Below are positions 9,911 to 16,188 of a stretch of DNA of 16,188 nt, piece after piece. The notes beneath the pieces were generated by a model. That model was not told where the DNA came from. It saw only the letters and a program-made list of their open reading frames with translations, and made no database searches. Numbering within the stretch: position 1 is the stretch's first letter; each line of letters begins with the position of its first letter. Source of the DNA: a virus (Duplodnaviria; Heunggongvirae; Uroviricota; Caudoviricetes). The stretch lies in the IMG/VR virus record IMGVR_UViG_2740892005_000001. One strand, 5' to 3'. Made by a program: the position numbers and the translations under genes.

Positions 9911-12900
9911 ATGGGTAAAGGCAGCAGTAAGGGGCATACCCCGCGCGAAGCGAAGGACAACCTGAAGTCCACGCAGCTGCTGAGTGTGATCGATGCCATC
10001 AGCGAAGGGCCGGTTGAAGGTCCGGTGGATGGATTAAAAAGCGTGCTGCTGAACAGTACGCCGGTGCTGGACAGTGAGGGGAATACCAATATATCCGGCG
10101 TCACGGTGGTGTTCCGGGCCGGTGAGCAGGAGCAGTCACCGCCGGAGGGATTTGAATCCTCCGGCTCCGAGACGGTGCTGGGTACGGAAGTGAAATATGA
10201 CACGCCGATCACCCGGACCATCACGTCGGCAAACATCGACCGTCTGCGCTTTACCTTCGGTGTACAGGCACTGGTGGAAACCACCTCAAAGGGAGACAGG
10301 AATCCGTCGGAAGTTCGCCTGCTGGTTCAGATACAGCGTAACGGTGGCTGGGTGACGGAAAAAGACATCACCATTAAGGGCAAAACCACCTCGCAGTATC
10401 TGGCCTCGGTGGTGGTGGATAACCTGCCGCCGCGCCCGTTTAATATCCGGATGCGCAGGATGACGCCGGACAGCACCACAGACCAGCTGCTGAACAAAAC
10501 GCTCTGGTCGTCATACACCGAAATCATCGATGTGAAACAGTGCTACCCGAACACGGCACTGGTTGGCGTGCAGGTGGACTCGGAGCAGTTCGGCAGCCAG
10601 CAGGTGAGCCGTAATTATCATCTTCGCGGGCGCATTCTGCAGGTGCCGTCGAACTATAACCCGCAGACGCGGCAATACAGCGGTATCTGGGACGGAACGT
10701 TAAAACCGGCATACAGCAACAACATGGCCTGGTGTCTGTGGGATATGCTGACCCATCCGCGCTACGGCATGGGGAAACGTCTTGGTGCGGCGGATGTGGA
10801 TAAATGGGCGCTGTATGTCATCGGCCAGTACTGCGACCAGTCGGTGCCGGACGGCTTTGGCGGCACGGAGCCGCGCATTACCTGTAATGCGTACCTGACC
10901 ACACAGCGCAAGGCGTGGGATGTGCTCAGTGATTTCTGCTCGGCGATGCGCTGTATGCCGGTATGGAACGGGCAGACGCTGACGTTCGTGCAGGACCGAC
11001 CATCAGATAAGGTGTGGACCTATAACCGCAGTAATGTGGTGATGCCGGATGATGGCGCGCCGTTCCGCTACAGCTTCAGCGCCCTGAAGGACCGCCATAA
11101 TGCCGTTGAGGTGAACTGGATTGACCCGGATAACGGCTGGGAGACGGCGACAGAGCTCGTGGAGGATACGCAGGCCATTGCCCGTTACGGCCGTAACGTC
11201 ACGAAGATGGATGCCTTTGGCTGTACCAGCCGGGGGCAGGCACACCGCGCCGGGCTGTGGCTGATTAAAACGGAGCTGCTGGAAACGCAGACCGTGGACT
11301 TCAGCGTGGGTGCTGAAGGGCTTCGCCATGTACCGGGGGATGTCATTGAAATCTGCGATGATGACTATGCCGGTATCAGCACCGGTGGTCGTGTGCTGGC
11401 GGTGAACAGCCAGACCCGGACGCTGACGCTCGACCGTGAAATCACGCTGCCATCCTCCGGTACCACGCTGATAAGCCTGGTTGACGGAAGTGGCAATCCG
11501 GTCAGCGTGGAGGTTCAGTCCGTCACCGACGGCGTGAAGGTGAAAGTGAGCCGTGTTCCTGACGGTGTTGCTGAATACAGCGTATGGGGGCTGAAGCTGC
11601 CGACGCTGCGCCAGCGACTGTTCCGCTGCGTGAGTATCCGTGAAAACGACGACGGCACGTATGCCATCACCGCCGTGCAGCATGTGCCGGAAAAAGAGAC
11701 CATCGTGGATAACGGGGCGCACTTTGACGGCGAACAGAGTGGCACGGTGAATGGTGTCACGCCGCCCGCGGTGCAGCACCTGACCGCAGAAGTCACCGCA
11801 GACAGCGGGGAATATCAGGTGCTGGCGCGATGGGACACACCGAAGGTGGTGAAGGGGGTGAGCTTTATGCTTCGCCTGACCGTGGCAGCGGATGACGGCA
11901 GTGAGCGGCTGGTCAGCACGGCCAGGACGACGGAAACCACATACCGCTTCAGGCAACTGGCGCTGGGGAACTACAGGCTGACAGTCCGGGCGGTAAATGC
12001 GTGGGGGCAGCAGGGGGATCCGGCGTCGGTATCGTTCCGGATTGCCGCACCGGCAGCGCCATCGCGGATTGAGCTGACGCCGGGCTATTTTCAGATAACC
12101 GCAACGCCGCATCTTGCCGTTTATGATCCGACGGTACAGTTTGAGTTCTGGTTCTCGGAAAAGCGGATTGCGGATATCAGGCAGGTTGAAGCCAGCGCGC
12201 GTTATCTTGGTACGGCGCTGTACTGGATAGCCGCCAGTATCAATATCAAACCGGGCCATGATTATTATTTTTACATTCGCAGTGTGAACACCGTTGGCAA
12301 ATCGGCATTTGTGGAGGCTGTTGGCCAGCCGAGTGATGATGCATCCGGCTATCTGGATTTTTTCAAAGGAGAGATAGGGAAAACCCATCTGGCTCAGGAG
12401 TTGTGGACGCAGATTGATAACGGTCAGCTTGCGCCTGACCTGGCTGAAATCAGGACGTCCATTACGGATGTCAGCAATGAAATCACGCAGACCGTCAATA
12501 AGAAACTGGAAGACCAGAGTGCAGCGATCCAGCAGATACAGAAGGTTCAGGTTGATACAAATAATAACCTGAACAGCATGTGGGCTGTGAAGCTGCAGCA
12601 GATGCAGGACGGACGCCTTTATATCGCGGGTATTGGTGCCGGTATTGAGAATACCCCTGACGGTATGCAGAGTCAGGTGCTGCTGGCGGCGGACAGGATT
12701 GCGATGATTAATCCTGCGAATGGCAATACAAAGCCGATGTTTGTTGGGCAGGGCGATCAGATATTCATGAACGAAGTGTTCCTGAAATATCTGACGGCTC
12801 CCACCATTACCAGCGGTGGCAATCCCCCAACGTTTTCACTGACACCTGATGGTCGACTTTCTGCGAGAAATGCGGATATCAGCGGTAACGTGAATGCGAA

Positions 12901-13393
12901 CTCCGGGACGCTCAATAATGTCACGATTAACCAGAACTGTCGGATTCTGGGAAAACTGTCAGCTAACCAGATTGAAGGTGATATTGTCAAAACGGTGGGA
13001 AAAGCCTTTCCGAGAAATGGCAGTTATGCCAGCGGTACAATAACGGTCACTGTGTACGATGACCAGGCTTTTGACCGTCAGATAGTCGTCCCCCCCGTTC
13101 TGTTTCGCGGTGGTAAGCATGAAAACTTCAACAGCAACAACCAACAGTCATACTGGTATTCAACCTGTAAGCTGCAGGTGCTGAAGAACGGACAGGAAAT
13201 CTTTCAGCAACCCGCGACGGATGTCAGCAGGGTATTTTCATCAGTCATTGATATGCCTGCCGGACACGGCCATGTCACCCTGACTTTCAATGTTTCTTCA
13301 TATGGTGCAAATAACTGGACGCCAACGACCAGTATCAGCGACCTTCTTGTTGTCGTGATGAAGAAATCAACAGCCGGCATCAGTATCAGTTGA
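9911..13393 (+). CDS. J: Central tail fibre / host specificity protein gpJ (1160 aa), with an apparently divergent C-terminal receptor-binding region
   Basis: N-terminus [34 protein letters not shown]... and the first ~800 residues match lambda gpJ as I recall it, including the fibronectin-III-like central region. Lambda gpJ is 1132 aa and this ORF is 1160 aa. The final ~300 residues (from about ...[29 protein letters not shown]... to ...[16 protein letters not shown]) do not match my memory of lambda J. Confidence 0.93.
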
Positions 13394-13410: not shown

Positions 13411-13440
13411 CGGGCACCAGAAATGGTGCCTTTTTTATTT
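13411..13440 (+). terminator. Rho-independent terminator-like hairpin immediately downstream of J
   Basis: CGGGCACC-AGAAAT-GGTGCC followed by TTTTTTATTT: a perfect 6-7 bp GC-rich stem with a U-tract, 18 nt after the J stop and about 12 nt before the stf start. Confidence 0.55.
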
Positions 13441-13451
13441 GTGGAGTGAAT

Positions 13452-15473
13452 ATGGCAGTACAGATTTCAGGTGTGCTGAAAGACGGTGCAGGAAAACCGA
13501 TACAGAACTGCACCATTCAGCTCAAAGCAAAACGTAACAGCACCACAGTTGTGGTGAACACGGTGGCCTCAGAAAATCCGGATGAAGCCGGACGTTACAG
13601 CATGGATGTTGAGTATGGCCAGTACAGCGTCGCCCTGCTGGTTGAAGGTTTTCCGCCTTCACATGCCGGGACCATCACCGTGTATGAGGATTCTAAGCCG
13701 GGGACATTGAATGATTTTCTGGGCGCTGCAACAGAAGATGATGTTTGTCCGGAGGCACTGTATCGTTTTGAAAAGATGGTGGAAGAGGCGGCACGCAACG
13801 CTGAAGCCGCCTCTCAGAGCGCAGCGGCAGCAAAGAAATCAGAAACAGCAGCGGCATCGTCCAGGAACGCGGCGAAAACATCAGAGACGAATGCAGGTAA
13901 CAGCGCGAAAGCGGCAGCTTCTTCAAAAACAGCCGCACAAAACGCAGCAACAGCGGCAGAACGTTCAGAGACAAATGCCCGTGCGTCAGAAGAAGCCTCC
14001 GCAGACAGTGAAGAGGCTTCCCGCCGTAATGCAGAGTCAGCCGCTGAAAATGCCGGAGTCGCCACCACAAAAGCGCGGGAGGCCGCAGCAGACGCAACAA
14101 AGGCCGGGCAGAAAAAGGATGAGGCTCTGTCGGCAGCGACACGAGCTGAAAAGGCGGCAGACCGCGCAGAAGCCGCAGCGGAAGTGACTGCAGAGCCCTG
14201 TGCGAATATAGTGCCGCCGCTGCCTGATGTGTGGATACCGTTTAACGATTCACTGGATATGATTACGGGTTTTTCGCCATCTTATAAAAAGATAGTTATT
14301 GGTGACGATGAAATAACAATGCCAGGCGACAAGATTGTTAAGTTTAAACGTGCTTCAACAGCAACGTATATTAATAAGTCCGGCCAACTCAAGCTTGCTG
14401 AAGTTGACGAACCGCGATTTGAGCGCGATGGCTTATTGATTGAAGGACAGAGGACAAATTATCTGAGGAACTCAAATAAACCAGACTCATGGACTGTTCA
14501 TTCCGCACTGAATAAAACATTTGGCACTGATAAACAGGGGTTCAATTATGCCACGGTGACACCCACGGAAAGTATAGTGGGAACAACAGGTGGCTATACT
14601 GTGCATGGTGTGGTTGCAGCAGACAGATTCCCGCTGGCAAGTGGTGAATGTTTCACTTTTTCGTGCCGGGTTAAAGGCGCTAAAGCACGATGCAGGTTAA
14701 GAGTTTCAGTTATTATTGGTGGAACAGATACCTTCTCTGCTGACTCTTATCTTGATCTGGATACCCGGATCGCAACAGTAAGCGGTAATACATCCCTTAT
14801 AACAGCCAAAGCTGAACAACAGGGCGAGTGGACCTACTATGAGGCCACTTATACAGCTAATACGGACATTGATACCGTTAACTGTGCTTTTTATATGACA
14901 AATAAAATAAGTAATGAGACATTCTATGATGACTCAACATTAACCATGACGACGCCGCAAATTGAACTGGGCAATACGGCATCGTCATTTATTGTAACTA
15001 CAATGCCAACAACACGCGCAAGTGATGTAGTTACTATCCCATCGCAGAATAACCTGTCAACACGGCCTTTTACGGTATTGTGCGAAGTAAGCAGGAACTG
15101 GAGTACACCGCCCAATGTTGCGCCAAGGATATTTGATGTTGGAGGGCACAGTATTGATGATAATTATTTATCGCTGGGGTTTGTTGCAACAGGAAAGATA
15201 AGCGCCAACGTAGGAATGGTTCAGCCACAAATTGCCTCAGATGGAGAAAGGTTCATTGTGGGTGTGAGAGCTAAATCTGATTTATCAGTAAATGCAATAT
15301 GCAATGGTAATTATACAACAAACCTTAATGGTAAAATATTTGGAGTTACAGCAACATCGTACCGGTTTGGTGGGCAGACCGCAGCAGGAACGCGTCATTT
15401 GTTTGGACACATCAGAAATTTCAGAGTCTGGTTTAAAGAATTAAATGACAGGCAAATCAAGGAGGCAGTATGA
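13452..15473 (+). CDS. stf: Side tail fibre protein (Stf-like), chimeric: lambda-Stf-like N-terminus, Ala/Ser-rich repeat shaft, unrelated AT-rich C-terminal domain
   Basis: ATG at 13452 with GGAG 5 nt upstream. N-terminus MAVQISGVLKDGAGKPIQNCTIQLKAKRNSTTVVVNTVASENPDEAGRYSMDVEYGQYSV... closely resembles the lambda Stf (orf-401) N-terminus, followed by an A/S/E/T/N-rich repetitive segment. From about residue 250 (nt ~14200) the sequence and base composition change to a domain I cannot place. 673 aa in total. Confidence 0.85.
   Translation: MAVQISGVLKDGAGKPIQNCTIQLKAKRNSTTVVVNTVASENPDEAGRYSMDVEYGQYSVALLVEGFPPSHAGTITVYEDSKPGTLNDFLGAATEDDVCPEALYRFEKMVEEAARNAEAASQSAAAAKKSETAAASSRNAAKTSETNAGNSAKAAASSKTAAQNAATAAERSETNARASEEASADSEEASRRNAESAAENAGVATTKAREAAADATKAGQKKDEALSAATRAEKAADRAEAAAEVTAEPCANIVPPLPDVWIPFNDSLDMITGFSPSYKKIVIGDDEITMPGDKIVKFKRASTATYINKSGQLKLAEVDEPRFERDGLLIEGQRTNYLRNSNKPDSWTVHSALNKTFGTDKQGFNYATVTPTESIVGTTGGYTVHGVVAADRFPLASGECFTFSCRVKGAKARCRLRVSVIIGGTDTFSADSYLDLDTRIATVSGNTSLITAKAEQQGEWTYYEATYTANTDIDTVNCAFYMTNKISNETFYDDSTLTMTTPQIELGNTASSFIVTTMPTTRASDVVTIPSQNNLSTRPFTVLCEVSRNWSTPPNVAPRIFDVGGHSIDDNYLSLGFVATGKISANVGMVQPQIASDGERFIVGVRAKSDLSVNAICNGNYTTNLNGKIFGVTATSYRFGGQTAAGTRHLFGHIRNFRVWFKELNDRQIKEAV
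13780..14190 (+). repeat. Degenerate in-frame tandem repeats encoding the Ala/Ser/Glu-rich fibre shaft of Stf
   Basis: Recurring protein motifs of about 14 residues (SETAAASSRNAAKT / SETNAGNSAKAAAS / SKTAAQNAATAAER / SETNARASEEASAD ...), with GCN/GCA-rich nucleotide sequence. These repeats explain the spurious long ORFs in the other frames here (13711..14187 + and 13693..14142 -). Confidence 0.5.
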
Positions 15474-15748
15474 AAGATTTAACTTTGAAATTTCCTGGTA
15501 ACAGAGAGTTTAAATCCTTCCTGTCATCTCTTGACTGGGAGGAGGATGAAGACCTCCAGAATAAACTGTTAGTCGATGAAATTGGTTTCACCTACACAGA
15601 AACAGGGGTAACAGAAGAGGGAGAACCTGTCTGTGTCCGGAATGACGGTTATTTTGTCAACATTCGCATTCTTGATGACTTGTTTGATGTTTCTGTATTC
15701 TCTGATTATGTCGTGGAGCTGGAAACACCGCTTCGGGAATGGAGCTGA
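15470..15748 (+). CDS. Hypothetical small acidic protein (92 aa), translationally coupled to stf; possible fibre-tip chaperone or accessory protein
   Basis: ATG at 15470 overlaps the stf stop (ATGA) and has a strong RBS AAGGAGG 4-5 nt upstream. Product MKDLTLKFPGNREFKSFLSSLDWEEDEDLQNKLLVDEIGF... is rich in D/E. It has no resemblance to lambda Tfa that I can see. AT-rich like the stf 3' part. Confidence 0.6.
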   Translation: MKDLTLKFPGNREFKSFLSSLDWEEDEDLQNKLLVDEIGFTYTETGVTEEGEPVCVRNDGYFVNIRILDDLFDVSVFSDYVVELETPLREWS

Positions 15749-15760
15749 AAGGAGGAAATA

Positions 15761-16054
15761 ATGGATATAAGCCCCTTACTTCATGCACTTTGTGCTGTGG
15801 CTGCGCAGATACTGGTTGGTCTTTTTACCGGAAACTGGGCTTACGGAGCGATAGCCGGTTGTACGTTCTTCATTGCGCGTGAACATACCCAGGCAGAATA
15901 TCGCTGGATTGAAATGTTCGGGCATGGCAAGCGAATGAATATGCCGTGGTGGGGCGGTTTTGATCCGCGAGCTTGGGATGTGGCAAGCCTGATGGATTTT
16001 GCTGTGCCGGTGGTGGCGTGTCTGCTGGTCTGGCTGTTGGTTAATCGTGGGTGA
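15761..16054 (+). CDS. Hypothetical small membrane protein (97 aa, two predicted hydrophobic helices)
   Basis: Very strong RBS AAAGGAGG about 6 nt upstream of ATG 15761. Product has an N-terminal hydrophobic stretch (LLHALCAVAAQILVGLFTGNWAYGAIAGCTFFIA), a Trp/charge-rich middle (EYRWIEMFGHGKRMNMPWWGGFDPRAWD) and a C-terminal hydrophobic stretch (FAVPVVACLLVWLLV). Not recognised as any lambda late protein. Confidence 0.6.
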   Translation: MDISPLLHALCAVAAQILVGLFTGNWAYGAIAGCTFFIAREHTQAEYRWIEMFGHGKRMNMPWWGGFDPRAWDVASLMDFAVPVVACLLVWLLVNRG

Positions 16055-16071: not shown

Positions 16072-16188
16072 ATGCAACGGAGGAAGAAACCCCGTTGCTG
16101 GAAGCCAGGAAAAAGTATGAAGTGGTTTACTGAATTTGGCCACCTGAACAGAGGTGATATGCTCACCTCAGAACAACACAGGTGCCAT
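16072..16188 (+). CDS. Possible 5' end of a further ORF running off the window (basic N-terminus MQRRKKPRCWKPGKSMKWFTEFGH...)
   Basis: ATG at 16072 with AAGGTGAG about 6 nt upstream; open to the window end (39 codons). Too short and truncated to call with confidence. Confidence 0.3.
   Translation, partial: MQRRKKPRCWKPGKSMKWFTEFGHLNRGDMLTSEQHRCH

Follow-up and report, generated by a model that had tools for sequence, protein, structure and literature searches.

Phage tail fibre ends are served by several described systems. Proteins of the Tfa, Mu U and P2 G type (PF02413, Tfa/Caudo_TAP) are encoded directly after the fibre gene and co-transcribed with it; each is tied to one fibre C-terminus and is exchanged horizontally along with it. 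Peptidase_S74 domains (PF13884), as in T5 pb1, the K1F endosialidase and LtfA/LtfB of DT57C, are intramolecular chaperones placed at the fibre end. At the T4 long-fibre hinge, gp35/gp36, a small protein stands at a joint. Finally, DT57C is an established case of branched fibres, where a second receptor-binding fibre is borne by a proximal one (PMC4728585; PMC10713586), and PMC4728585 describes C-terminal intramolecular chaperone domains in both LtfA and LtfB. Here we analyse a gene of 92 amino acids (aa) at 15470..15748 (+ strand) of the window, the whole 16,188-nucleotide (nt) stretch of IMG/VR record IMGVR_UViG_2740892005_000001, which comprises late structural genes of a lambdoid, phage-21-like prophage. 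The 92-aa gene directly follows stf, the side tail fibre gene, and fills the position of lambda tfa. An initial annotation had proposed either a dedicated chaperone for a novel fibre tip or a DNA-mimic-like moron product. Since identical or nearly identical proteins are already in databases, the sequence itself is not new. What is new, as judged by comparison of loci, is that across sipho- and myoviruses the small gene appears obligately paired with one widespread fibre end.

This fibre end was delimited by comparison with lateral fibres. It is a C-terminal module of Stf, called StfC here, that covers residues ~258-675 (14217..15470, + strand), from 'PLPDVWIPFNDSLDMITGF' to the end of the protein (~420 aa), and whose final domain ends 'RHLFGHIRNFRVWFKELNDRQIKEAV'. 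Alignment of 12 divergent representatives separates conserved segments (271-345, 511-570, 646-675) from variable ones (346-510, 571-645). Residues 271-345 correspond to a conserved junction, and residues ~331-525 to a variable jelly-roll matching NF048003 (the head-spike-fibre domain of gene transfer agents, GTA) and, weakly, CBM_4_9. StfC is 40-55% identical to the C-terminal parts of the lateral fibre proteins of JenP1, IrisVonRoten and KarlBarth. As the N-terminal tail-attachment parts of the fibre proteins are unrelated among these phage groups, the mobile unit is StfC plus the small gene. A search from StfC found the module in 216 phage records, with extra records carrying divergent versions (33-38% identity); the best 120 database matches listed for the window Stf were all identical to the query over StfC. 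The tip that had been taken for novel is thus a widespread lateral-fibre C-terminal module, part of which matches a described domain. A 'galectin-like domain' has been noted at the C-terminus of IrisVonRoten Gp22 (Humolli et al. 2025, PMC11990801), and in one distant locus (L109) a StfC-type protein carries Pfam Laminin_G_3.

To relate the small gene to this module, ~110 loci were inspected, from lambdoid phages and prophages, an HK97-like prophage, Dhillonvirus, Nonagvirus, Drexlerviridae, T5-like and rV5-like phages, P1-like plasmids and distant metagenomic relatives. In all but two of them, a fibre protein with this C-terminal module comes directly before the small gene, mostly with overlapping stop and start codons; the two are phage 4A7 and L110, the latter with a weak upstream match. 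A scripted scan covered 95 loci, made up of annotated records, contigs encoding homologues and 80 IMG/VR loci. A full-length StfC homologue was present in 95/95, ending at the start of the small gene (ATGA, TAATG or GTGA) in every case except L049, where the StfC match lies ~2.7 kb upstream, an arrangement like that of phage 4A7. Co-occurrence of the Stf tip and the 92-aa gene, which the initial annotation had named as a point to check, holds throughout the scan. In 4A7, an insertion sequence (IS) severs the end of stf from the small gene: in this isolated temperate phage (NC_049946.1, locus L107, 5376-7792), stf is truncated at about residue 366 of the 420-aa StfC, and the insertion is annotated as three transposase open reading frames (ORFs), with an IS66-type layout by our own reading.

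The same association was recovered from either partner. By tblastn, the small protein was found in 144 phage records, including lambdoid phages, Dhillonvirus (KarlBarth), Nonagvirus (JenP1) and T5-like phages (IrisVonRoten, SIA3lw); in each of the annotated records, the small gene overlaps the 3′ end of a gene labelled 'lateral/side tail fibre'. The rV5-type small protein led to KarlJaspers (Drexlerviridae), where fibre and small gene are arranged as elsewhere, and this arrangement was also seen in phage 21 and SIA3lw. Conversely, in the three loci opened from the StfC search (rV5-like 'nomine', T5-like SP15 and lambdoid PhiR47_1), the small gene directly follows in all three, with profile E-values of 1e-16 to 1e-18. 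A search of 1.84 billion proteins extended the family to distant members of 93-101 aa, in loci of 32-60% GC, which share the hallmark '...GYHVNLRV...TP.RVWA'. Directly before most of them lies a protein with a match to the StfC profile and the ending '...IRNFRIWH..L.D.QI..'; in L110 this upstream match is weak (E 0.011). Gene fusions were sought by the profile search of the 1.84 billion representatives, and its 89 clusters are nearly all standalone proteins of 85-110 aa. Long multi-stretch matches (P0144, P0165, P0166, P0170, P0173, P0180, P0186) proved to be PKD-repeat proteins, picked up through many weak repeats of a 'W.DG...Y.V.VRVLDDDGG' motif; they were judged spurious because the small protein is predicted to be alpha/beta and not a PKD fold.

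Some of these loci deserve separate mention. In a scan of species-representative genomes, the close family was confined to Escherichia, bar one 2.8-kb contig in a Collinsella-labelled metagenome bin. Records MG065652-55 and OR847733 are labelled Campylobacter or Listeria phage, yet they carry coliphage-type (rV5-like/Seuratvirus-like) fibre modules and are probably mislabelled or contaminated. The small protein of rV5-like nomine (L096, 4769-5101) has 110 aa and, in place of the 'P.R.WA' tail, a different 25-residue end. The GC-rich prophage at L109 (GCA_002994485.1, 2691-5991) encodes two StfC-type proteins in tandem, one of 679 aa (with Laminin_G_3) and one of 416 aa, ahead of a single small gene, which is directly followed by the lysis cassette (holin, amidase).

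In the window, the ATG of the small gene (15470-15472) overlaps the stf stop TGA (15471-15473) in an ATGA, and 4 nt ahead of this ATG, still within the 3′ end of stf, is an AAGGAGG ribosome-binding site (15459..15465, + strand). The coupling to stf read by the initial annotation is therefore present in the sequence. No promoter-like or terminator-like sites were found by sequence scan between stf, the 92-aa ORF and the 97-aa ORF that comes after it. The product (10.7 kDa; RefSeq WP_000654172.1, 'hypothetical protein') is strongly acidic, as had been described, with 22 D/E against 8 K/R, an isoelectric point (pI) of 4.05 and a net charge of about -14, and acidity is kept across the family (pI 4.05-4.69). 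It matches PHROG 1361 over its full length (E 1.6e-39, residues 1-91 on profile positions 1-91 of 92) and has 332 database homologues at E<=1e-3, nearly all of 90-93 aa. Invariant positions are distributed along the whole chain; the polar N64 and R66, on a beta-strand, are among them. Ratios of non-synonymous to synonymous substitution rates (dN/dS) are 0.2-0.4 among lambdoid loci without a distal fibre, synonymous sites being saturated between the two main clades, and the gene is truncated in one of the 80 IMG/VR loci (L062). The 92-aa ORF is thus a real, conserved gene, coupled to stf; the conservation whose lack the initial annotation had named as a sign against translation is evident.

Lambda_ev203 and other records contain proteins identical or almost identical to that of the window. 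Phage 21 and the BASEL phages have homologues: CPT_21_23 of phage 21 is the equivalent 92-aa gene at the same position, and bas32_0023 of IrisVonRoten is homologous. Together with PHROG 1361 and WP_000654172.1, these form a single family whose entries assign no function, being called 'unknown function', 'hypothetical protein' or, without explanation, 'tail fiber protein'. No functional statement on the 92-aa protein was found in the literature checked on DT57C, BF23, SIA3lw, SIY1lw and rV5 and in two BASEL papers, nor in that on E. coli HS phages, lambda particle engineering and phage 21/Seuratvirus proteomics.

Set against the described systems, the small gene shares with the Tfa type its position directly after the fibre gene, its co-transcription, its tie to one fibre C-terminus and its horizontal exchange along with it. 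The two are nevertheless distinct. The 92-aa protein is half the size and unrelated in sequence: Pfam gave no match above noise and none to PF02413 at E<=1, NCBIfam gave none, and an hhalign comparison between the family profile and a Caudo_TAP protein of the P1 U type returned a probability of 0.2%, in agreement with the earlier remark that nothing Tfa-like is recognisable. Moreover, the small gene coexists with U in P1-like plasmids, where U follows the distal fibre, and its product pairs with globular jelly-roll domains instead of a Tfa-type fibre tip. With S74 chaperone domains, it has in common an equivalent place at the fibre end, and in rV5-like phages StfC plus the small gene replaces a fibre allele ending in such a domain. 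In contrast to these domains, the 92-aa protein is a separate polypeptide with no autoproteolysis motif, and no Pfam match to Peptidase_S74 was found in it or in Stf; distal fibres encoded downstream of the small gene often bear an S74 domain of their own. Because the defining sequence features of both families were looked for and are absent, the 92-aa protein does not belong to the Tfa or the intramolecular-chaperone families. The likeness to DT57C lies in a proximal fibre that carries a second one; the fibre ends differ, the 92-aa gene persists where the second fibre is absent, and a term search of PMC4728585 found no small gene in DT57C.

Two contexts are particularly informative. In P1-like plasmids, R is followed by S (966 aa, with StfC at its end), the small gene, a distal fibre of 365 aa and U; after these come, in inverted orientation, U′, an alternative variable S part, and cin. 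The segment from StfC through the alternative S part lies between inverted repeats of 197 nt, and sister plasmids carry it flipped. Lying inside this cin-invertible segment, the small gene belongs to a switch of fibre specificity and would be expressed only when that fibre variant is. In L014 (4451-10583, GCA_044827745.2), as in L013 and L015, the cin segment toggles between a simple fibre (alternative S part plus U′) and a two-part fibre (S with its StfC end, the small gene, the distal fibre of 365 aa, and U). The second context is rV5-like phages. The gp41 fibre of rV5 ends in a K1F-type intramolecular chaperone domain and is not followed by a small gene; at the same position, 'nomine' encodes instead a fibre ending in StfC, and the small gene. 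Virion proteomics of rV5 was considered and set aside as not applicable to the small protein, since the gp41 allele of rV5 comes without the small gene.

Taken together, these comparisons make it close to certain that the 92-aa protein has a fibre-linked function and that this function is tied to StfC rather than to the distal fibre. We favour, with a probability of roughly 0.6, that it is a dedicated, non-Tfa accessory protein of the StfC fibre end, which would bind StfC and may serve its folding or assembly. It would be made from the late transcript of Stf, in stoichiometric amounts through the stop/start translational coupling. StfC itself would combine the conserved junction, a variable GTA-spike-like, putatively sugar-binding jelly-roll and a final domain (Laminin_G_3 in the distant relative). 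Between L019 and L033, the small protein is 93% identical and the variable StfC 42%; if the small protein, better conserved than variable StfC, binds this module, it must bind conserved parts, and the segments 271-345, 511-570 and 646-675 could provide the common contact. Binding there would lead to correct folding or assembly of the fibre end, and the protein might remain attached to the proximal fibre's end as a small subunit. Of the earlier proposal of a chaperone for the fibre tip, comparison of genomic contexts strongly supports the link to the fibre; the chaperone activity is putative.

Several points weigh against the accessory protein that we favour. Globular jelly-roll domains usually need no trimerisation chaperones. 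The divergence of the small protein and that of StfC are decoupled by recombination, hence there is no co-evolution signal, and an argument from co-evolution was dropped for this reason. A published AlphaFold-Multimer model joins the distal Gp24 of IrisVonRoten to its proximal Gp22 without the small protein, and Humolli et al. 2025 give the intervening small protein no role (PMC11990801). Lastly, the sole virion proteomics found for a carrier phage, SIA3lw, covered only gel bands of at least 19 kDa (PMC12752171) and is thus uninformative on a 10.7-kDa protein.

The alternative that survives best concerns the distal fibres. In most lineages, a second (distal) fibre gene starts 9-12 nt 3′ of the small gene. 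Its first ~15 residues are conserved (M[VA][TS][KV]T.IP.DI..LK) and the remainder varies, the types including S74 intramolecular-chaperone fibres, Gp34_trimer fibres plus U, and the T-shaped receptor-binding protein of IrisVonRoten. The shared N-terminus looks like a common docking peptide; short-peptide tblastn with this motif returned exact matches only. Distal fibres with this N-terminus start at 4289 in L002, 5289 in L003, 4270 in L004, ~6290 in L007, 6289 in L014, 5102 in L098 and ~4282 in L099. The small protein might then be a mere joint or adaptor mounting the distal fibre on the end of the proximal one, to give a branched fibre, and the window gene a leftover after deletion of the distal fibre. 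Indeed, in the window and in all other lambdoid loci of the 95-locus scan there is no distal fibre and a ~97-aa membrane protein follows directly. Lambdoid PhiR47_1 shows the full series (Stf, small gene, distal fibre, terminator-like hairpin, ORF97-like gene, dinI and int), so that the window seems to descend from such an arrangement by loss of the distal fibre. Branched fibres are established in DT57C, and in SIA3lw both fibre proteins flanking the small gene were detected in virions (PMC12752171).

We nevertheless consider it unlikely that the small protein is a joint and nothing else. In lambdoid clades without a distal fibre, where the protein is 60-100% identical to that of the window, the gene is intact and under purifying selection, and rV5-like phages and L109 retain it although no distal fibre comes after it there. 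Across the wider family, the N-terminus of the distal fibre changes ('MANRID...') while the hallmarks of the small protein persist. Branching in DT57C, moreover, goes with LtfA and LtfB that have intramolecular chaperones of their own and, as far as the term search of that paper goes, with no small gene. From the arrangement of the loci, the small gene thus appears independent of the distal fibre, its constant partner being StfC and especially the last domain. Mounting a distal fibre and serving the StfC end are compatible, not exclusive, roles.

Structure prediction was also counted in favour of the accessory protein. An AlphaFold2 model built from a 65-sequence alignment is compact, with a mean pLDDT score (predicted local distance difference test) of 92 and a predicted template modelling (pTM) score of 0.77. 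Residues 2-8 form a strand, 11-20 and 27-32 form helices, and 33-47/53-67 make up a long hairpin, to which a short helix is added. Order is lowest in the nearly invariant C-terminal 'PLREW' tail, as would be expected of a segment that becomes ordered only on a partner. The alpha/beta fold had no significant match among solved structures, and a sequence search of the PDB with the family profile found nothing. The structural comparison suggested by the initial annotation gave a confident model, although one that matches no solved fold. As for a further alternative, conserved strong acidity, the invariant N64 and R66, and strict coupling to a module with predicted sugar-binding domains would suit a protein that masks or regulates the lectin-like domain in the producing cell, or an extra receptor-contacting subunit at the fibre tip. 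We regard both as rather improbable: nothing specific speaks for either of them, and a role in receptor specificity is at odds with the conservation of the small protein, which far exceeds that of the variable StfC part presumed to bind receptors.

The moron hypothesis of the initial annotation, a DNA-mimic-like anti-restriction or anti-defence protein riding on late transcription, fared worse. The protein is indeed small and very acidic, and it is encoded near the end of the late operon of a prophage with cargo (sitABCD in relatives). However, whether the phage is virulent or temperate, its gene keeps strictly to one fibre module, including inside the P1-type invertible segment. It lies in the late operon, and not in the early or leading region where mimics of the Ocr and ArdA type are expressed independently of structural modules. 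No PADLOC family was matched at E<=1, and there was no similarity to known B-DNA-imitating folds among solved structures; as no solved structure was matched significantly, nothing resembling a DNA mimic turned up. This hypothesis is accordingly not supported and very improbable. That the ORF is non-functional, by chance or as a decaying remnant, is hardly credible: the annotation as merely 'hypothetical protein' is outweighed by the full-length PHROG match, hundreds of homologues of constant length, dN/dS below 1, the strong ribosome-binding site, the conserved stop/start overlap, the confident fold prediction and the single truncation among the 80 IMG/VR loci.

The surroundings of the gene in the window are those of a lambdoid late region, with head genes, then homologues of V, G/T, H, M, L, K and I, and J (9911-13393), the last gene before stf. 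Between J and stf, a sequence scan found a terminator-like hairpin with a T-run (13412..13440, + strand), and phage 21 has an annotated terminator at the equivalent site. The stf gene (13452..15473, + strand) encodes 673 aa, with an N-terminal PF08400 domain, an Ala-rich shaft and StfC at its C-terminus; its start is most likely ATG 13452, giving the length of the database proteins, rather than the in-frame GTG 13446. E. coli 4/1-1 has an intact stf identical to that of the window. In NZ_CP023844.1 (L001, 4153-6174), RefSeq splits stf into two 'incomplete' pseudogene pieces (N-terminal domain; head-spike-fibre domain). The frame is intact there, with 0 mismatches to window 13452-15473 and a single terminal stop; the pseudogene call is an annotation artefact of a mosaic protein.

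On the 3′ side, the 97-aa ORF (15761..16054, + strand; PHROG 1443, function unknown) has its own AAGGAGG ribosome-binding site (15749..15755, + strand) and encodes a predicted membrane protein, whose phage 21 counterpart, CPT_21_24, is labelled 'putative membrane protein'. It directly follows the 92-aa gene in all lambdoid loci without a distal fibre, where it occupies the slot of the distal fibre of other phages, and 75 phage records contain it, weak relatives being present in phages of Aeromonas, Halomonas and Cobetia. It is probably not part of the fibre module and may be a separate moron, for example a superinfection-exclusion protein. The last ~85 bases of the window (16104..16188, + strand) are the left end of an IS3-family (ISEc52-like) element, present in up to 24 copies per E. 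coli genome; most relatives, the closest ones included, have the sitD flank there instead. Of 889 bases around the 92-aa ORF, 819 are 100% identical in many E. coli chromosomes, and a match covering at least 80% of the 889 was found in 1,108 of 5,426 complete genomes. In those E. coli genomes, in phage Lambda_ev203 and in classical phage 21, stf, the 92-aa gene and the 97-aa gene abut sitDCBA.

Phage host range is set by lateral and side tail fibres, the very parts that are swapped when phages or phage-derived delivery particles are engineered. The fibre end described here is common in coliphages, as the 216 phage records and the 1,108 genomes indicate. Should the small gene prove necessary for this end to fold or for a second fibre to be carried, fibre chimeras constructed without it would fail. 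The 'hypothetical' label of the 92-aa family ought to be dropped from annotation pipelines. The fibre type itself can be recognised by a simple rule: a fibre ending '...IRNFRIWH..L.D.Q...' and an overlapping acidic ORF of ~90-100 aa. More tentatively, and with the odds against it, the 92-aa protein could represent an uncharacterised class of fibre-end subunit, a small acidic cap that matures the lectin-like end and also acts as a universal socket for interchangeable distal fibres. If true, this would explain how sipho- and myoviruses exchange their receptor-binding modules and branch them, including by DNA inversion in P1-like plasmids.

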